Position numbers and translations under genes: made by a program. Shown one piece after another: positions 16,381 through 55,593 of a stretch of 64,000 bases of DNA; positions within the stretch are counted from its first letter, which is position 1; each line of letters begins with the position of its first letter. Source of the DNA: an uncultured Desulfurococcaceae archaeon (lineage in GTDB: Archaea; Thermoproteota; Thermoprotei_A; Sulfolobales; NBVN01); assembly GCA_964592745.1 (NCBI GenBank), contig CAZQFL010000006.1:4942-68941 (forward strand), written 5' to 3'. The notes under the pieces are model-generated. The model saw nothing but the letters and a program-made list of their open reading frames with translations, was not told the DNA's origin and made no database searches.

Positions 16381-17406
16381 CTACGAATTCCTACCTACTT
16401 TAACTACATATACGACATCCCTATCCACTATAAAGTACTGCAATTTATCTCCATTACTAGGCTGTAGCTTAAGTATTGGCCTCTCAAGTAACCTAGCCAA
16501 TTTCGCTAATTCCTCTAGATTACTTAGTGAAATCTTCGTTACATTTGATCCTTTAGGTATACTATCAGTTGTCACTAATATATCTGAGTACTTTTTCTCA
16601 AATTTTTCCACAATATTAAATGATCTTAACCTCATCAACATGAATGTCGATGTTGTAAGGAATGAAATACCTACTATTGCTAAGATTATAGATATTAATC
16701 TGAGTGTATTAATGTTAAAGCCGATTATATTTAATTCCTTAGTCTTGCTTATCTTCCTACTTATGGTGGCTGAATTACTTAAATTACCCTTAACAATGAC
16801 TTTATTGTTACGCGTATCTATGGTAAGTGTGATTGGGTGAGTAAATGGGTCCATAACTACTCTAGAGTCTACCTTTAATCTTGACTTTACTGATGTATCT
16901 ACTATTACATCGAATGGTGTTGGTTTAAGACCTAGCTCTGAAGTTAGGTTGTTCATGAACATCAGTAATCTACTTAAATTAAGCTTTAATTCTCCAATAA
17001 CGTGTGAAGTGTTATTAAATGACTTACTGATTAATAGATATGTCTTAGACCAACCATCGGGATGGACAACTTTAACTGTCATATTTAAATTACCTGACGC
17101 AGTAGCGTTCCTGTAGTCAAGACTGTAATTGATATGTATGAACTTAACTATGGAGAGGTATATGGGTGTCTTAAGGTCATAACTTAGTTCTTCACCAAAG
17201 ACCTCATTAGGTATTAATAGGAATTTCAGTGAATATTCCGATCTTCTCTTAATGCTGAATAGCGTATATTCCTTAACTATGTAGGGCTTCTTAGTGAATG
17301 CAGCATAACCAATTACTCCTGCTAGAGATACTATAATTAATGAGGCTATTAGTAATGAGGTATTCAAGGTCCTTAAGAGCTTTCTTGAAGGCATGTCAAA
17401 CCTCAC
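16381..17406 (-). CDS. Bitopic membrane protein with a large extracytoplasmic domain (cluster component)
   Basis: 341 aa. N-terminal TM (LLIASLIIVSLAGVIGYAAF), about 200-aa Asn/Ser-rich external domain, second TM (ISIILAIVGISFLTTSTFMLM), about 90-aa cytoplasmic tail. 4-nt overlap with the upstream peptidase gene. Confidence 0.6.
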   Translation of the reverse strand: MRFDMPSRKLLRTLNTSLLIASLIIVSLAGVIGYAAFTKKPYIVKEYTLFSIKRRSEYSLKFLLIPNEVFGEELSYDLKTPIYLSIVKFIHINYSLDYRNATASGNLNMTVKVVHPDGWSKTYLLISKSFNNTSHVIGELKLNLSRLLMFMNNLTSELGLKPTPFDVIVDTSVKSRLKVDSRVVMDPFTHPITLTIDTRNNKVIVKGNLSNSATISRKISKTKELNIIGFNINTLRLISIILAIVGISFLTTSTFMLMRLRSFNIVEKFEKKYSDILVTTDSIPKGSNVTKISLSNLEELAKLARLLERPILKLQPSNGDKLQYFIVDRDVVYVVKVGRNS

Positions 17407-18653
17407 CAGTAAGTACCGCTTCTCTTAAATTTAAACTTGTGCCTCCTCATGAACCTCATAGATATTCCTATTATGATTAGTAAAGCTATTAGAGTAACCG
17501 CAATAACTCCTTCATAACTCTTTAACCCCTCCCTAAACACTATAGTAACCCAGCCTAACTTGGGTATGTATCCAACTACCTTACCTACTACAGACTCCCT
17601 ACGTACAATGAACGGGTCGGGATTAATGTAAGCGTCACCTTTCGTCCTAAAACCCTCTTTAGTAATTTGGTAAATCCTATGAACAATAACTTCTTTACCA
17701 CCAAATATGAATGCGATTACATCACCTACTTTAACATCGTAAGGAGAATGTAAGGCAACAAGTACTATATCACCAACATCATATGTAGGTCTCATACTAC
17801 CACTAATGATGACTAAAGGTATTATCTTAAAGTGTAGAGTTAAGAGTACCATAATAACTAAGACTAGAGATATCACTTCAGGTATGTATCTCTTAAGTTT
17901 ACTGAGCTTACTAAACTCAAAGAAATCCTTCGATACACCCCTAAGCTTCCGTATAGAGTATAGTATAGTAATTAAAACTCCATAGTATATCATTGACTGG
18001 AAACCACTCCATACCATACCTAGCTCGCCTGTATTAGCAACTATGGGTGAAAATCTCATATAACCATCGACTAGTAACCTAAAGATCATAGCTACCTTAA
18101 ACCCACCTAATATATGTAATAAAGTTAAAATCATACTATAAAATAAGCTTGGCAACATGGTTATAGGAGTCTTAGTAGCACTTAAGAAGTAATCCATTGC
18201 TACATAAATAGTTGAACCTAGGAATAACCCACTTAAGGTACCTAATATCATCCTACTCCAAAACCCTTTAACAAGACCTACCGTAGCTGATCTACCAACC
18301 TCAATACCAATAACTTGTACTAAGAATATAGCGAAGCTAATTATAAATGACGTAGGTGATAATTTAATTAGGTTTATTCTTAAGTTAAAGCCCCATATGA
18401 AGCCTAATGCGATGAATATAGTTATTAAGATAAGCCCTATACTAAATCCCTTATATGCATCCATAGCCCCTATACCACTACGATATATGTAGGGTATTGA
18501 CAGGATTATCAACGTAGGCCAAATTATGTAGGTTATGAGCGAACCTGCTGTTCCACCAATAAGTATAGCTACATTAGGAATGAGAAGTGTGAATGTAATT
18601 ATGAGAATACGAATCAACTTTATATTTACGTGTCTAGGTGCTTTATTTAGCAT
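17403..18653 (-). CDS. Polytopic membrane domain fused to an ER/archaeal-type S26 signal peptidase I
   Basis: 416 aa. Residues 1-270 contain about 7-8 predicted TM helices and no Cys. The C-terminal part carries SGSMRPT (Ser box), VHRI (His box), KGD, and a C-terminal TM. Confidence 0.75.
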   Translation of the reverse strand: MLNKAPRHVNIKLIRILIITFTLLIPNVAILIGGTAGSLITYIIWPTLIILSIPYIYRSGIGAMDAYKGFSIGLILITIFIALGFIWGFNLRINLIKLSPTSFIISFAIFLVQVIGIEVGRSATVGLVKGFWSRMILGTLSGLFLGSTIYVAMDYFLSATKTPITMLPSLFYSMILTLLHILGGFKVAMIFRLLVDGYMRFSPIVANTGELGMVWSGFQSMIYYGVLITILYSIRKLRGVSKDFFEFSKLSKLKRYIPEVISLVLVIMVLLTLHFKIIPLVIISGSMRPTYDVGDIVLVALHSPYDVKVGDVIAFIFGGKEVIVHRIYQITKEGFRTKGDAYINPDPFIVRRESVVGKVVGYIPKLGWVTIVFREGLKSYEGVIAVTLIALLIIIGISMRFMRRHKFKFKRSGTYW

Positions 18654-24937: not shown

Positions 24938-26950
24938 CTAGTTATTTATATTAATGATTAGTCCGTAAGATAACTTACCGTTTACCCATACTGCTAATGT
25001 GTACTCACCACTACTTAGGTTTTTAAGTATGTCTTTTGTATTAAACTTTATTAACGCACTATATTTATCAATGACCCACTCACTAGCATGTATTGTCTTA
25101 ATACCTTCATACGTATACCCTTTAGGTGCTATACCTAAGATGGGCTCTACTTCACCCTTCTTATAAATGAGTACATTTACTTTACTTATTCTATTATGTT
25201 TATAATTAATCATTAGAGTCACGGATTCATTGTGGATTTTAATAGTAACATTAGGTATTTCGTAATTTACAACAGCAATACTCATGGAATAATTACCTAT
25301 ATGGACCCAAATATAAGATTCGTTACCTATGTACTCACTGAAGTATTTCCTTGCAATACTTAAAGCTTTCATTGCGAGGAAATCTATCCATTGATTCTTA
25401 AATACGGGATTATAAAAGTACGTTACAGGTACAGCTTCACTCATTCTTAAACCTGAAATGGGTGGTACTAATAGTGTTAGCCTACCCACTAGAAGGTTAC
25501 TCTCTATTAAACTTAATAATTTAGGCTCAATAGTTAAGCCTAAATATTTGCTTAATCTCATTGATACTTCACAATCAAGATAAGGTATTGAATCTTGTGG
25601 ATATGAATCATAGTTAAACAACTTACTTAAGTCAACGTTTGGGAATACTTCAACTACGGGTGTTTTACCTCCTTTAATTTGAATTATGTCAGCACGTACA
25701 GTCCTACTTTTAAGTATATATTCTACATAGTCTTGAATCTCCATTGGGGGCGGATGTTGGTCAAGTATAAATAGTGAATTATTTAAATATATAGCTGCTA
25801 CAGCATGGTTTACTGATTTGATACTCAATATGTATGTTGGACTTACATTAACTGACTGAAGGGCTGCTGAAATTAGTACGGAATAGTCAATACATATCCC
25901 TTTACCTCTATTTATCGTTGTTAATGGGTTATTTATGTAGAGTATACCTTTAGCCTCCTTATCATAATCGTACCTTATGTTACTGCTAACCCATTCTAAT
26001 ACTCTCCATATCTTACTAGTTACTTCTGTAACACTCTCATTACCGAAAATCTTACTTCTAATAACTTCTAGTAAGCTAGACCTATGGTAGCATACTAAAC
26101 TCGTTAAGTAGCTACTTACTTCAGTACCATACTCCCCACCCTCACAAACAAGACTTGCGGGTTTTTCCTCAAGTTTGATGTCATTTATAGATATGGTCAA
26201 GTTCTTCTTCACGAAATCAGCTATTAACACCTCTCTTGGATTCCACCTATAACCACTCCATACTATTAATTTATAATTACCATCATTAATTACGTTAATA
26301 ATCTTACTTACATTAATCATTAACACCGTTAATGTCTCATTAATATAAGTGTAATCAGCCTGTATAACATTTCTCTCCCTCCCTTGAAGTGGTAAGATTA
26401 TGTATTTGGGATATTCATCGCCTTCCTCATATATACCTATGGAGTGTAATAACCCTCGAACCCCTATGATTAACTTCCCATTACTCATGTATATGAATGC
26501 GTGACCTCCCCTTACATAATTATCGATATCGATATTAAAGATAGCACTTAAGTTAATGCTTAAGATTCCTAATGTTTCCTTATCCATACATGAAGCTACT
26601 ACGTTCCTAAACTTAATCTTTGTTATCTGTACCTTACTCTTACTTTTATTTAATATTGTGGTTAATGATGTAGTTAACGATTTTGTAGGAGTAGTCGTAT
26701 GTGGTATGGTTTGATTACTTACTGCAGTGCTAATTGTAACTGACTTAGTGCTCCTTAAATCAGTTCTTGAAGTTTCCTTTCTAGTACTCTTTGTGATCGA
26801 ATAAATCGATTGAGTATTGAAAGTACTTATGGTAGTTTTAAGAGGGGTTGTTACTTCCCTTAATTTCACCGTAGGTACTTCTCTGATTAAGAGCAATGAT
26901 ATGGCTAATAACAATAGCGCAATAATTACTATGATCATGAATTTCTGCAT
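24938..26950 (-). CDS. Membrane-anchored transglutaminase-like cysteine protease-fold protein
   Basis: 670 aa. N-terminal TM helix, an about 90-aa Thr/Ser-rich stalk, and a transglutaminase core with a Cys-His-Asp arrangement (GKGICIDYS ... NHAVAAIY ... ILDQ). Confidence 0.7.
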   Translation of the reverse strand: MQKFMIIVIIALLLLAISLLLIREVPTVKLREVTTPLKTTISTFNTQSIYSITKSTRKETSRTDLRSTKSVTISTAVSNQTIPHTTTPTKSLTTSLTTILNKSKSKVQITKIKFRNVVASCMDKETLGILSINLSAIFNIDIDNYVRGGHAFIYMSNGKLIIGVRGLLHSIGIYEEGDEYPKYIILPLQGRERNVIQADYTYINETLTVLMINVSKIINVINDGNYKLIVWSGYRWNPREVLIADFVKKNLTISINDIKLEEKPASLVCEGGEYGTEVSSYLTSLVCYHRSSLLEVIRSKIFGNESVTEVTSKIWRVLEWVSSNIRYDYDKEAKGILYINNPLTTINRGKGICIDYSVLISAALQSVNVSPTYILSIKSVNHAVAAIYLNNSLFILDQHPPPMEIQDYVEYILKSRTVRADIIQIKGGKTPVVEVFPNVDLSKLFNYDSYPQDSIPYLDCEVSMRLSKYLGLTIEPKLLSLIESNLLVGRLTLLVPPISGLRMSEAVPVTYFYNPVFKNQWIDFLAMKALSIARKYFSEYIGNESYIWVHIGNYSMSIAVVNYEIPNVTIKIHNESVTLMINYKHNRISKVNVLIYKKGEVEPILGIAPKGYTYEGIKTIHASEWVIDKYSALIKFNTKDILKNLSSGEYTLAVWVNGKLSYGLIININN

Positions 26951-51695: not shown

Positions 51696-51914
51696 TTACA
51701 AACCTAAAGCTCTATCAAAAACTATTAACGTGATTATGATAGAAAGCGAAAACACTATTAGAAATAAGAGCATAAGTACTTCATTAACCTTTGAGTGGTT
51801 AGTACTGATGCTATGTAGTATTACAATTACAGCAAGAACTACTAATGCCACTATTACCTTGAACTTTGAGTATGTACTCAAATCATCTTTAGATGAGCTT
51901 GATCTTAATACCAC
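51696..51914 (-). CDS. Small two-TM membrane protein (possible CedA2-like)
   Basis: 72 aa, two hydrophobic helices. Overlaps the end of the upstream polytopic gene by 26 nt. Confidence 0.4.
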   Translation of the reverse strand: MVLRSSSSKDDLSTYSKFKVIVALVVLAVIVILHSISTNHSKVNEVLMLLFLIVFSLSIIITLIVFDRALGL

Positions 51915-53238
51915 CTCCTAACACCCTTGATAGTGCTACAGACATTGATGTGAGAAATGCTATGTAAACACTTGGGAGAAATACTAAAGTGTAAAGATAC
52001 GCAACACTCATAATGATGTATGAGTAGAGTATGCTCGTTAAGTCACTTAATGCTATAAGTCTCTTTTCAGATATACTAGGTTTTAGCGGTTCATAAATAC
52101 CTTTAAATACTATGATTAACGTGTTACTTAATCTTTTTAGCTGTAATGGACATTCATATAACTTAATACCACGCCATGTGAATTCACTCCAATTACACGC
52201 TATATTAACGTCATTAACATTAACATATTCTATGTTAACATTGCTAAACCTAATCAATTTTACTTGAGTAGCTGATTGCGTATATAGGTTAATGATGACT
52301 ATATCACCATAGTTCGTTATCTCTCTTACCATGGTGTCACTATTCAATATAATTGAAAGGCCATTGGTGTACAGTAGGAATGGTACCTTGAGTGTTAATG
52401 TACTTCTAAGCTCACTAGTGTTTACCCTATATGGTTTAGGTGTAAAGAGATATCCCATGAATTCTATTTTAAGGAATAGAGTCAAGTTTGTTGGTATCAA
52501 ATCCTTACCGTAACCTAAGCTTATAATTCCATACCTATTCCCTAAGATTACTCCTCTAGGCTCATCACCTTCCTTAGTGTAAATTAAGAGTATAGGATAT
52601 GGTACTCTATTCCCTACTTCATCAATAACAACAATATTAGTTGAGTTTATGAAAGAACTACCTAAGGATTGGTTTATACTCGGTGTGAGGTATGTAGTGA
52701 AGGCTGGTAGTAATGGAAAGCCTACATACATCACTATTGATGAAGCTATCAAGAACGCGCCAATACCCTTACCTATCCTAAATGGTAGTGAATAAAGTAG
52801 AATGCCCAATAACATTAGCTTATCCTTTAAGGAATATATGGTTAATGCAAGGAAATATATTATTTTAAGAGCTGAGAGAGCCGTCGATATGTAAGTAAGT
52901 GCTAAATTAATTGGTGATGAAATAATGAGTGCATAAACGCTTTTGAAAAATGAGGAAATATACGATAATGTACCAAATAATGTCAGTAACATAGCAGTTC
53001 TAGCTACGAGCCAGTTTATGAAGTTAGACCAGGAATACCCTATTAAATTTAGTATGTAATCACCTAGGTGAAGGAGTATTCCATATATCGATATTAAGAC
53101 TGCGGTTGATATTGAATCAATTATTAATAGCATTCCCCACTTCTTTAAATTTTTATAAGGTATAGGTAACGCTAATATTAGTATACCTATAATATATGTA
53201 AGTAACGCTAAGTTTGAAGCTAGGAGTAGAAAGTCCAT
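51889..53238 (-). CDS. Polytopic membrane protein with a central beta-rich external domain (possible CedA/VirB6-like)
   Basis: 449 aa. About 6 N-terminal TM helices, an about 200-aa non-hydrophobic domain, and 1-2 C-terminal TM helices. Flanked by two small two-helix membrane proteins. Confidence 0.45.
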   Translation of the reverse strand: MDFLLLASNLALLTYIIGILILALPIPYKNLKKWGMLLIIDSISTAVLISIYGILLHLGDYILNLIGYSWSNFINWLVARTAMLLTLFGTLSYISSFFKSVYALIISSPINLALTYISTALSALKIIYFLALTIYSLKDKLMLLGILLYSLPFRIGKGIGAFLIASSIVMYVGFPLLPAFTTYLTPSINQSLGSSFINSTNIVVIDEVGNRVPYPILLIYTKEGDEPRGVILGNRYGIISLGYGKDLIPTNLTLFLKIEFMGYLFTPKPYRVNTSELRSTLTLKVPFLLYTNGLSIILNSDTMVREITNYGDIVIINLYTQSATQVKLIRFSNVNIEYVNVNDVNIACNWSEFTWRGIKLYECPLQLKRLSNTLIIVFKGIYEPLKPSISEKRLIALSDLTSILYSYIIMSVAYLYTLVFLPSVYIAFLTSMSVALSRVLGGGIKIKLI

Positions 53239-53255
53239 ACATTAGCACCTATTAG

Positions 53256-53534
53256 CTATGGTGTTATTGGCGTTGGAGGCATAGGCTGGTAGACATTACT
53301 GACTATGTAAGAAATTAGTGCAAATATTGTTGAGCCCATGGCCATCCAAAAAGCAGCTAAAACCGCATCCTCAATTAATCCTTGTCCTGCTCTCTTAACT
53401 CTATGTATAGGTATAGGGGATCCTCGAATAGCCCATCCAACAATCCATGTAACTAAGAATAGAAGCCATGCTATAGTCATTAATTGAGTAGTCAATTGCT
53501 GAATAAACTCTACTACACCCACGTCCCTCCCCAC
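53256..53534 (-). CDS. Small two-helix membrane protein (possible CedA1/VirB2-like pilin)
   Basis: 92 aa. Two hydrophobic helices (LMTIAWLLFLVTWIVGWAI and AVLAAFWMAMGSTIFALISYIV) are separated by a basic loop (RGSPIPIHRVKRAGQG). GTG start. Confidence 0.4.
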   Translation of the reverse strand: MGRDVGVVEFIQQLTTQLMTIAWLLFLVTWIVGWAIRGSPIPIHRVKRAGQGLIEDAVLAAFWMAMGSTIFALISYIVSNVYQPMPPTPITP

Positions 53535-53580
53535 ACATTAAAAGGGTTTAAAAATTGTATTATGGTAAGGGAAGGAGTGT

Positions 53581-55593
53581 ATGCGTAAGTGGGGCTTTAA
53601 GAGGGACCTGTACTGGTGCCCTACCTGTAATATACCATTAAGGAGTGAACTATGTGGAAAGTGTGGTGGTAAGGCGATTAAGGTTAAGATAAATGAACCT
53701 GGAGATCTAAGGCCAGCATTTGATGGTGATTTAAAGTTTATTGAAGAAGCCTTAGTTAATGAGTTTGGTGATGCTAAGCTAATGCATAAACTAGGGATAG
53801 GGAATAACTTAACATTTCTCAATAGAGTTCCTCACTATGATGACATGAAGGAAGTAATTGTTAATGGGGTAATAGTTGGGAGATTATACTTTGATCCATA
53901 TAGATTTAAATGGCGTTGGCGACTTAATAAGTTAAGTGCCCTAGAAGCTTTGAATGAAGGTTTAATTAAGCATTATGTCAGGGATAGTGCTAAACCTTTA
54001 GAGATAGTAGATGATGCTAAAAATGCTGAGGACGGTGAACAAGCAGCAATAATTAATAAGAACGGAGACATAATAGCTTTAGCCATTGCTAGGAGAGGCA
54101 AGTTCAGAGTTCAAATAATATTTAAGAAAGGTAAAGAACTACCTGAACCATTCAAGAGCAAATCAACAATAGATGATGTTCTTAAAGGGAATGACGAATA
54201 CTTAAGAATGCTTATATCAAGATCCTTAGCGCACCTAGTAGTAATTAGTGAGAGAGTAGGCTTACCAATAGTTTTATCATACTCAGGAGGGAAGGATTCA
54301 TTATTATCACTACATTTAGCCTTAAATGCTGGTATAGAGCCTAAATTATTATTCAACGATACGGGATTAGAGTTCCCTGAAACTGTTAGTAACGTATACA
54401 ATGTCTCAAAAATATATGGTCTAGAGTTAATTACTGCAAATGCTGGTGATAAGTTCTGGCATAGTGTTAATGTATTTGGCCCCCCTGCAAAGGATTATAG
54501 ATGGTGCTGTAAAGTTGTAAAACTTATTCCTATAGCTAAGACTTATAAGAAATACTTTCCACGAGGTCTTCTAGTAATAATAGGTCAACGAGCTCTAGAG
54601 TCTATAGATAGATCTTGGAGTGGGCGTGTTTGGAGAAATAGGTGGTTACCCTTAGCTTTAAACACTACACCAATACAGGAATGGGATCAGCTGTCTGAAT
54701 GGCTTTACATAATTAAGAATAAATTACCTGTAAATCCTCTTTACTTTAGAGGTTTCGATAGACTTGGCTGTTATTTATGTCCTGCAGCTTACATAGCTGA
54801 GTACTACATAGTTAATAAGGAACATCCTGAATTATGGGAGAGATGGTTGAATGTACTTAATGAGTGGTGTACTAAGCTATGCCTACCTAAACAATGGGTT
54901 AGGTTCCACTTATGGAGGTGGCTTAACCCTCTAGGTCAGGGGAGGAGAAGAGTAGAATTATGGTTAGGATTAAAGAAGCCATCGAATTGGATTAATGAAT
55001 ATGAGAGACGTTCAGGTCTCACAATTACAGGATATGAGATTAATGGCGGGTACGTAATTAAGATTAAAGAAGGCATACCCATTGAGGGTATAGTAAAACA
55101 ATATAGGATAATTGGTCGCAAACTAATAGTTAGTGATGGTAATGTAGCAATCTTAGATAGTGAGAGAGAGATTAGAGTGTCTAAGCATACTATTGCAGTT
55201 AGGAGTAATGAAAATCCGTTTGAATATGCTGTACTAACCTTAAAATTAGCCATAAGGTGGAGTAGGTGTGTAAGCTGCGGTAACTGTAGTTTATGGTGTC
55301 CTAAAGGAGCTATATCACTAAGTAATGAACGCCCTGAAGTTAATCCTGAAAAATGTATTGGTTGTGGTATATGCGTCGAAGTATGTCCGCTAGCTGAGGT
55401 ATTTACGGAGAAACTTATTGTAAGTAGACTAACAGGTAATCCTAAAGGGAGACCTAGAAAGTTAAAAGCATTAAGTTTAGAGTACGTTAAGGCATTAAGG
55501 AGAAAGCAGATATCTGAGAAGGGCAGAGATTCAGAGGTTAAACAGCATTATGAAGGTATTAGTGAATTGTTTAGTGAGGAAGAGAATGAGTAA
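53581..55593 (+). CDS. PAPS-reductase-family PP-loop protein with an N-terminal zinc ribbon and a C-terminal 2x[4Fe-4S] ferredoxin domain
   Basis: CPTCNIPL...CGKCGG; PP-loop LSYSGGKDS; YRWCCKV; CVSCGNCSLWCP and CIGCGICVEVCP. Confidence 0.75.
   Translation: MRKWGFKRDLYWCPTCNIPLRSELCGKCGGKAIKVKINEPGDLRPAFDGDLKFIEEALVNEFGDAKLMHKLGIGNNLTFLNRVPHYDDMKEVIVNGVIVGRLYFDPYRFKWRWRLNKLSALEALNEGLIKHYVRDSAKPLEIVDDAKNAEDGEQAAIINKNGDIIALAIARRGKFRVQIIFKKGKELPEPFKSKSTIDDVLKGNDEYLRMLISRSLAHLVVISERVGLPIVLSYSGGKDSLLSLHLALNAGIEPKLLFNDTGLEFPETVSNVYNVSKIYGLELITANAGDKFWHSVNVFGPPAKDYRWCCKVVKLIPIAKTYKKYFPRGLLVIIGQRALESIDRSWSGRVWRNRWLPLALNTTPIQEWDQLSEWLYIIKNKLPVNPLYFRGFDRLGCYLCPAAYIAEYYIVNKEHPELWERWLNVLNEWCTKLCLPKQWVRFHLWRWLNPLGQGRRRVELWLGLKKPSNWINEYERRSGLTITGYEINGGYVIKIKEGIPIEGIVKQYRIIGRKLIVSDGNVAILDSEREIRVSKHTIAVRSNENPFEYAVLTLKLAIRWSRCVSCGNCSLWCPKGAISLSNERPEVNPEKCIGCGICVEVCPLAEVFTEKLIVSRLTGNPKGRPRKLKALSLEYVKALRRKQISEKGRDSEVKQHYEGISELFSEEENE

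Follow-up and report, generated by a model that had tools for sequence, protein, structure and literature searches.

The Ced DNA-import system of crenarchaea is a domesticated type IV secretion system (T4SS) with homologs of VirB2, VirB6 and VirB4 (PMC9905601), and its genes have been known in Desulfurococcales since 2016, as stated in those passages of PMC11823120 and PMC11868833 that cite the finding. Here we describe a cluster of three minus-strand genes at positions 51696-53534 of a 64-kb stretch of DNA, hereafter the window, from contig CAZQFL010000006.1 of an uncultured Desulfurococcaceae archaeon. The cluster is very probably the membrane and pilus part of a Ced DNA-import system, a cedA1-cedA-cedA2-type operon. 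The system itself is known; what is new is a Ced member in this uncultured Desulfurococcaceae lineage. Also new, relative to the Ced literature surveyed, and offered as a modest lead, are a dedicated two-lobed ectodomain within the central protein, hereafter long-form CedA, and the sub-threshold scoring that results from it.

The Ced system of Sulfolobales, exemplified by Sulfolobus acidocaldarius (Saci_0567-0569 plus CedB and CedD; van Wolferen 2016, PMC11823120, PMC11868833), has the same order of cedA1, cedA and a small gene for a protein with two transmembrane (TM) helices. Its CedA membrane core and C-terminal helix are homologous to those encoded in the window, and its ATPases are encoded away from the cedA operon. 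The loci used for comparison were those of Sulfuracidifex tepidarius, Sulfolobus sp. A20 and S. tengchongensis, whose central proteins (P0084, P0081 and P0078) are named 'DNA import protein CedA' in NCBI or UniRef. They consist of cmk, cedA1 (79-80 residues), cedA (261-289 residues), a gene for 51-55 residues located 1-10 nucleotides (nt) after it, and archease. The neighbourhood in the window is different, with psmB, nfi and a gene for a 3'-phosphoadenosine 5'-phosphosulfate (PAPS)-reductase-like protein in place of cmk and archease, and CedA of Sulfolobales, at 261-289 residues, lacks the ~200-residue beta ectodomain. The initial annotation of the window had matched the cluster to Ced by size, topology and gene order; the order is indeed that of the Sulfolobales loci, whereas the size of the central protein is not, with 449 residues against ~260 for Sulfolobales CedA. 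Induction by ultraviolet (UV) light and a joint action with Ups pili have been documented only in Sulfolobales.

The Ced system of Aeropyrum pernix belongs to a host of the same broad order as that of the window, and neither has Ups pili according to the literature. The two pilins can be aligned, including the RGSPIP...R.KR.G loop, and both lack a signal peptide; relatives in the Acidilobaceae have a CedA of ~460 residues with a segment at the position of the insert. The differences lie in the host, here a member of an uncultured Desulfurococcaceae-type family in which pili are predicted from the genes, in the gene that follows cedA, which encodes a VirB4/HerA-like ATPase in Acidilobaceae loci and the CedA2-like protein here, and in the insert, whose sequences in the two families can hardly be recognised as related. 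The Ted system of Thermoproteales (TedC, TedA and TedB; PMC9905601) also places a gene for a VirB2-like pilin beside one for a VirB6-like seven-helix protein, but TedC, which carries a cleavable signal peptide, is not similar to CedA1 in sequence, and a VirB4-like ATPase is encoded nearby. An assignment to Ted was rejected, since the window proteins match Ced families and the pilin can be aligned with the unprocessed pilin of A. pernix right from the N-terminus.

Bacterial conjugative T4SS with VirB2 and VirB6 share with the window a pilin and a polytopic platform protein with a pilin-like N-terminus; however, no direct sequence or fold match of the window proteins to bacterial VirB2 or VirB6 was obtained, and Ced, a minimal apparatus, lacks VirB5, VirB7-10 and an outer-membrane complex and imports DNA without exporting it. 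Extended VirB6 proteins contain at least five hydrophobic helices and a large central or C-proximal hydrophilic domain, and a platform model has been put forward for VirB6 (PMC12857230). Long-form CedA is similar to these in combining helices with a large hydrophilic domain, and different in that its insert is a pair of beta-sandwiches that occurs in complete form only in CedA-like proteins.

The pilin, membrane and small-protein genes

Examination of the window confirmed the three adjacent minus-strand genes of the initial annotation as open reading frames (ORFs) of 92, 449 and 72 residues. The 92-residue product (53256..53534) matched the NCBIfam equivalog model NF041797 Ced_CedA1 over the whole of the model (positions 1-75 of 75) with 124.5 bits, above the cutoff of 100, and an expectation value (E) of 1.3e-36. 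A search against the PDB matched 8dfu_B, 'Pilin protein', with E 7e-23, aligning residues 6-78 onto 3-75 (73 residues). This entry is the CedA1 subunit of the hollow, lipid-containing pilus solved from A. pernix (Beltran et al. 2023, PMC9905601), and the CedA1 identity that had been proposed from architecture is therefore backed by an equivalog cutoff and by a solved pilin. The protein consists of two hydrophobic helices with the short basic loop RGSPIPIHRVKRAGQG between them, and homologs carry the precomputed PF27251 'CedA1' annotation. Alignment with the unprocessed A. pernix pilin begins at the second or third residue, consistent with the lack of a signal peptide, for which no dedicated predictor was run. 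Identity of cedA1 across related loci is 55-95%, and comparison with the ortholog in a related locus (L001) gave a ratio of nonsynonymous to synonymous substitution rates (dN/dS) of ~0.04, indicating strong purifying selection. By sequence, the window pilin is a VirB2-like member of the CedA1 family.

The two helices and basic loop described earlier are thus present, but the length of 92 residues probably is not correct. The most likely start is the GTG at 53522, giving 88 residues, because a TATA-box-like element, TTTTTAAA (53547..53554, minus strand, read from the sequence), lies ~25 nt upstream of it, and because the contig gene call and an identical database protein (P0024) both have 88 residues. 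This element is contained in the 46-bp intergenic region between the cedA1 ORF and the start of its divergent neighbour and, judged by general knowledge of crenarchaeal promoters, is the probable promoter of a leaderless cedA1-cedA-cedA2 transcript. The cedA1 ORF ends with a TAG at 53258-53256, and the 17-nt spacer before cedA contains AGGTG (53246..53250, minus strand, read from the sequence), a Shine-Dalgarno-like motif 7 nt upstream of the cedA ATG (53238). This tight spacing suggests that cedA1 and cedA are co-transcribed.

The 449-residue product of the second gene (51889..53238) matched NCBIfam NF041796 Ced_CedA with E 1.6e-45 and 155.7 bits, residues 2-201 aligning onto positions 6-207 of 259. 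The CedE model gave a lower score of 102 bits. Residues 6-58 were also matched by the CedA1 model (E 2.3e-5), and a profile of the long-form CedA family matched the 8dfu pilin (E 9.7e-6). A pilin-like N-terminus of CedA has already been published (PMC9905601) and is reproduced here; the corresponding hairpin, residues 1-66, is encoded at 53041..53238 and is homologous to CedA1. The relationship of the CedA family to VirB6 has been published on the basis of HHpred searches and structure superposition (PMC9905601, PMC11868833), and a relative from S. islandicus is labelled 'TrbL/VirB6' in UniRef. A sequence search with the 449-residue protein against the PDB returned noise only, and Pfam scans of all three proteins, with a Pfam set lacking PF27251, returned nothing meaningful.

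The AlphaFold 2 model of CedA, with a predicted local distance difference test (pLDDT) value of 80.6, contains helices at residues 2-23, 29-66, 70-100, 104-150, 157-184 and 400-439, in agreement with the hydropathy profile. Overall, six hydrophobic helices in the N-terminal part are followed by an all-beta segment at ~199-378, which lies in the most confidently modelled part, the insert, and by one C-terminal helix. A polytopic protein with a central beta-rich domain of ~200 residues, as initially described, is therefore what the model contains, while the external location given to that domain is a matter of deduction, taken up below. Helix 7 and the basic tail (residues 400-449, 51892..52041), ending in ...SRVLGGGIKIKLI, are conserved with short forms of the protein: in the alignment, P422, Y425, L429 and G441 of the C-terminal region are common to long and short CedA. 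Taken together, the profile matches unambiguously mark the 449-residue protein as a CedA homolog with a pilin-like N-terminal hairpin.

The third gene (51696..51914) encodes 72 residues with two TM helices and overlaps the end of cedA by 26 nt, in line with the overlap noticed at first. Its start is ambiguous, with a GTG at 51914 giving 72 residues and a TTG at 51881 giving 61, so that the gene either overlaps or abuts the cedA stop. Each of the 19 complete Desulfurococcaceae-type loci has a small two-TM ORF of 49-72 residues that begins at this stop or shortly after it. The ORF in L001 has an identical length and a dN/dS of 0.29 relative to that of the window, and the two other frames contain 5-14 stops. 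An architecture of basic N-terminus, first TM helix, short polar loop, second TM helix and charged tail is shared by the small proteins of these 19 loci and of the three Sulfolobales loci. The third gene thus matches CedA2 in position, size and topology, so that of the three names initially given, cedA1 and cedA hold by sequence and cedA2, more tentatively, by arrangement. All three ORFs are real genes and not chance ORFs, as follows from their adjacency and synteny across related loci, their dN/dS ratios and their stop-filled alternative frames.

The extra domain of CedA

Alignment with short forms located the ~200 extra residues of long-form CedA (~190-398, 52045..52671) between helix 6 and helix 7; they have no counterpart in short-form or Sulfolobales CedA. 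When modelled alone, the insert gave a pLDDT of 92.5 and a predicted template modelling (pTM) score of 0.88, and formed two all-beta lobes of the beta-sandwich type. Lobe 1 (~195-275) is carboxypeptidase-regulatory-like, with a Foldseek match to 9hfj of probability 1.00 and a TM-score of 0.70 on the target. Lobe 2 (~276-380) has a conserved cysteine pair, C348 and C363, and no clear counterpart among solved structures. Foldseek searches of the PDB with the insert and with the whole model gave nothing at E<=1e-3 and no significant whole-domain match, and a search of BFVD returned two matches of poor geometry (TM-score on query ~0.3). No specific homology to the Foldseek neighbours was assumed, as these are generic beta-sandwiches from Gram-positive pilins, the SusC N-terminal extension, CBM35, SlaB, phage tail proteins and the SSV19 tail protein.

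The distribution of the insert was determined by an exhaustive HMMER profile search of 1.84 billion representative sequences. The complete domain was found only in proteins of 440-480 residues, always at the same internal position, and in two proteins of ~310 residues; those scanned with NCBIfam, including both shorter ones, were all CedA homologs. The remaining matches were to giant proteins, occurred repeatedly and covered only profile positions ~7-53; they correspond to Big_1, Invasin_D3 and CarboxypepD_reg adhesin repeats. These profile matches relate lobe 1 to the Big_1/CarboxypepD_reg modules found in surface adhesins. CedA proteins of Acidilobaceae (460 residues) and Pyrodictiaceae (469-501 residues) also have ~200 residues at the position of the insert, which are barely recognised by the insert profile. 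Among members of the Desulfurococcaceae-type family, identity between pairs of sequences averages 55% in the membrane core and falls to 40% in lobe 1 and 25% in lobe 2; the insert is diverging about twice as fast as the membrane core. The ectodomain is not mentioned in the Ced literature surveyed, with the original Ced paper and the supplements lying outside that survey, and the size difference may have been noted before.

The insert is rich in N-X-S/T sequons, with 1.69 per 100 residues; outside the insert, CedA has 0.24, and ten cytoplasmic proteins encoded in the window have 0.38. The observed count of 39 sequons exceeds that of composition-preserving shuffles (18.4 +/- 3.8) and was reached by 0 of 1000 of them, corresponding to a 4.4-fold enrichment over the cytoplasmic proteins and a 2.1-fold enrichment over the shuffles. 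The sequon at N251 is conserved in 7 of 11 sequences. Clusters of lysine and arginine in loop 1, loop 5 and the C-terminal tail of CedA fit an orientation with the N-terminus outside, the C-terminus inside and the insert outside. The insert is therefore probably an autonomously folding, glycosylated ectodomain located outside the cell.

Alternative readings and the genomic setting

Several observations weigh against this interpretation of the locus and its domain. The CedA score of 155.7 bits is below the equivalog cutoff of 330, and the long-form relatives tested, at 135-182 bits, also fall below it. We attribute this to divergence from the Sulfolobales seed sequences and to interruption of the alignment by the 200-residue insert. 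No direct match to VirB6 or TrbL was obtained with Pfam (E<=10), a PDB profile search or Foldseek; of the structural likenesses suggested by the initial annotation, the one to a VirB2-like pilin (8dfu) was recovered and the one to VirB6/TrbL was not. Predicting how VirB6-like proteins sit in the membrane is difficult; the 'TM' helices of the R388 protein are mostly periplasmic (PMC12857230). In the model of CedA, residues 104-150 form a single continuous helix, so that it is uncertain how many helices precede the insert. The cysteine pair says little in favour of an outside location, given that hyperthermophilic crenarchaea have disulfides in the cytoplasm as well, and any function assigned to the insert can only be inferred. 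CedA2 is stated to be not conserved outside Sulfolobales and to be absent in A. pernix (PMC9905601, PMC11868833), and hhalign gave a probability of 36.6%, subject to hydrophobic composition bias, for a relationship between the small-ORF family and Sulfolobales CedA2. Finally, neither the window nor the ~17 kb that adjoin it on the source contig, ENA k141_345345 of 160.8 kb, encode a CedB-, CedD- or VirB4-type ATPase, so that a complete Ced system in this genome is presumptive.

The lack of an ATPase gene had been noted initially, and a check of the large ORFs of the window confirmed that none is CedB-, CedD- or VirB4-like. It is the expected result, since Sulfolobales encode these ATPases away from cedA, and CedB and CedD are present in most Desulfurococcales (PMC11823120, PMC11868833). 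One candidate, a 670-residue ORF at 24938-26950 (minus strand), was rejected as a CedB-like ATPase because its central domain is transglutaminase-like (Pfam DUF553, E 1.3e-32), and it has no NCBIfam match. Loci of Acidilobaceae and Pyrodictiaceae encode a VirB4/HerA/CedB-like ATPase 0-2.5 kb downstream of cedA. No such gene was found within 6 kb of cedA in Desulfurococcaceae-type loci, and neither the window nor the Desulfurococcaceae flanks gave a tblastn match to the Acidilobaceae ATPase. Two Acidilobaceae loci (L024, 1629-3149, and L025, 1645-3165) and three Pyrodictiaceae loci (L026-L028) have a gene for a P-loop ATPase of ~506 residues after cedA, its start overlapping the cedA stop. The matches of this protein to the CedB, CedD, VirB4 and HerA models are weak, at ~26 bits, far below every cutoff, and it may represent a divergent class of Ced ATPase that current models do not name.

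The alternative that fares best concerns the third gene, which could be an unrelated, lineage-specific small membrane protein, or an analog of CedA2; we consider this the less probable explanation, though one of substance. The 72-residue protein has no family match in Pfam or NCBIfam, tblastn found matches in the two closest genomes only, and the hhalign result given above, the reported restriction of CedA2 to Sulfolobales and the presence of an ATPase gene after cedA in Acidilobaceae all agree with it. A profile of 15 Desulfurococcaceae small ORFs scored the three Sulfolobales CedA2 proteins at 2.9, 7.4 and 17.7 bits, in a test limited by hydrophobic composition bias. Reversed controls scored -2.1 to 1.9 bits, so that the real proteins exceeded them in three of three cases, while they exceeded 300 shuffles in one of three. 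Against an unrelated protein stand these scores, the purifying selection on the ORF, and a position, size (49-72 versus 51-55 residues) and architecture that are alike in the 19 Desulfurococcaceae-type and three Sulfolobales loci.

The beta-rich insert could instead be cytoplasmic, for example as a docking site for the CedB and CedD ATPases or for DNA. The uncertain helix count, the record of wrong topology predictions for VirB6 and the weakness of the cysteine argument leave room for this. We nevertheless judge it unlikely, since the sequons are enriched beyond both composition and cytoplasmic proteins, with one position conserved, the lysine- and arginine-rich loops fit an outside insert, the CarboxypepD_reg/Big_1-like sandwich fold and its nearest structural neighbours are surface or adhesin modules, and fast divergence is typical of exposed domains.

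A third possibility is that the 449-residue protein is a distinct paralog, CedE-like or of a third class, with a different role such as DNA export or adhesion only, and that a short canonical CedA is encoded elsewhere. In Saccharolobus, a paralog of CedA, CedE, indeed plays a part in export (PMC11868833); the score of the window protein does not reach the CedA cutoff, the CedE model also matches, and only part of the genome is visible. However, every long-form protein tested scored higher with CedA than with CedE, the 449-residue gene occupies the position of cedA after cedA1, as in Sulfolobales, and CedE is reported to be specific to Saccharolobus (PMC11868833). In addition, the matches listed in a scan with long-form motifs comprised one locus per species-level genome and no extra short forms from Desulfurococcaceae. 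A paralog of this kind is very unlikely, and identification as CedA is preferred.

Among database sequences, the relatives of CedA comprise 21 clusters of full-length homologs of ~450 residues, which carry PF27251 'CedA1', and two short proteins of 266 and 298 residues. The 266-residue protein (L029, 1772-2811, JGI metagenome 3300005256) scored 385.8 bits with CedE (cutoff 400), above its CedA score, and its gene follows cmk and a CedA1-like gene of its own (80 residues), which is the position of cedA in other Sulfolobales. Orthologs in Saccharolobus-like genomes may thus be imperfectly separated by the curated CedA and CedE models. The 298-residue protein (L030, 2122-4897, JGI metagenome 3300020479) is a short CedA in which a segment of ~40 residues replaces the ectodomain. 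Its gene has no cedA1 upstream and adjoins a divergent gene for a 594-residue DUF87/AAA_10 ATPase, a layout unlike that of either Sulfolobales or Desulfurococcaceae loci.

A scan of species-representative genomes with long-form CedA motifs, of which the best matches only were listed, revealed 28 related loci, the best with 78% identity. They come from uncultured Desulfurococcales/Desulfurococcaceae (one being Zestosphaera tikiterensis), Acidilobaceae and Pyrodictiaceae. The cedA1 gene lies directly upstream of cedA in 27 of the 28, the exception being a truncated locus. In 15-20 loci the flanks are syntenic and include psmB (proteasome beta), nfi (endonuclease V) and genes for CTP-dependent riboflavin kinase, a CxxCxxCC protein, a PAPS-reductase-like Fe-S protein and a CDP-alcohol phosphatidyltransferase, as well as polB (PolB). 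The rest of the window is housekeeping in nature, with RNA polymerase A' and A'', elongation factor EF-1alpha and leucyl-tRNA synthetase (LeuRS). The guanine-plus-cytosine (GC) content of ~35% at the locus equals that of its surroundings, with no local anomaly, and those genes of the window and flanks that were examined included no integrase, plasmid, VirB4/VirD4 or relaxase-like genes. The syntenic housekeeping neighbourhood indicates that the operon is a stable part of the chromosome and does not belong to a mobile element. An origin as part of an integrated conjugative plasmid or element exporting its own DNA, to which the homology of CedA1 and CedA to conjugative VirB2 and VirB6 (PMC9905601) and the different, cedA1-less ATPase context of the short form in L030 would be congenial, is rejected as largely refuted and extremely improbable given that synteny with proteasome beta, endonuclease V, PolB, RNA polymerase and LeuRS genes in 15-20 species-level genomes, the normal GC content, the lack of mobility genes among those examined and the core-gene-like purifying selection on cedA1.

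The divergent neighbour of cedA1 (53581-55593, plus strand) encodes a 670-residue PAPS-reductase-like protein with a C-terminal 4Fe-4S ferredoxin domain (NCBIfam PRK13795-type 'hypothetical protein', 456.6 bits), and this adjacency is kept in 18 related loci. It carries no specific signal because the whole neighbourhood is equally conserved, and a functional link between Ced and the PAPS-reductase-like protein was accordingly rejected. Elsewhere in the window, a 416-residue ORF (17403-18653, minus strand) has an archaeal signal peptidase I domain in its C-terminal third (residues 261-392). The ~260 preceding residues had no match in NCBIfam, the single library scanned, and could be a long N-terminal extension or the product of an over-extended mechanical ORF.

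Proposed function and significance

The locus is consistent with a mechanism of DNA import analogous to that described for the Ced family. In this pathway, CedA would form a VirB6-like membrane platform or pore, from which CedA1 would be assembled and through which DNA would pass. Following the family literature, CedA1 would polymerise together with lipids into a hollow extracellular pilus of the conjugative type, with assembly of the pilus and translocation of the DNA powered by CedB and CedD ATPases that would be encoded elsewhere in the genome. The imported DNA would, again following the family literature, serve recombinational repair. With low confidence, the ectodomain may form a collar or stalk around the base of the pilus towards the surface layer (S-layer), or a surface for contact with a partner cell. 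If either role holds, long-form CedA would be an archaeal counterpart of the bacterial extended VirB6.

In Sulfolobales, species-specific partner recognition is the task of Ups pili. A more far-reaching idea is that the ectodomain is a glycosylated, fast-evolving recognition or stalk module that has taken over VirB5-like capping or nucleation, passage through the S-layer or partner recognition in Desulfurococcales, which have no Ups pili; we hold this to be speculative and rather doubtful. If it were true, long-form CedA would be the first extended VirB6 with an assignable role for its extra domain, and selection for mating specificity would explain why lobe 2 diverges twofold faster. Independently of this idea, the ectodomain offers a handle on the roles of extended VirB6 domains and on the nucleation of a pilus in the absence of VirB5. 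As far as the records show, the source lineage has no cultured or genetically tractable member.

The named members of the long-form clusters (for example HIQ03368.1 and MEM0259899.1) are all annotated as 'hypothetical protein' in public records. Ced is thus under-annotated outside Sulfolobales, because the long-form CedA of Desulfurococcaceae, Acidilobaceae and Pyrodictiaceae misses the curated cutoff and receives that label. The locus extends the range of Ced to an uncultured Desulfurococcaceae lineage, in which the operon is a stable feature of the core genome, and fits the idea that conjugation machinery domesticated for DNA repair is widespread in hyperthermophilic Thermoproteota.

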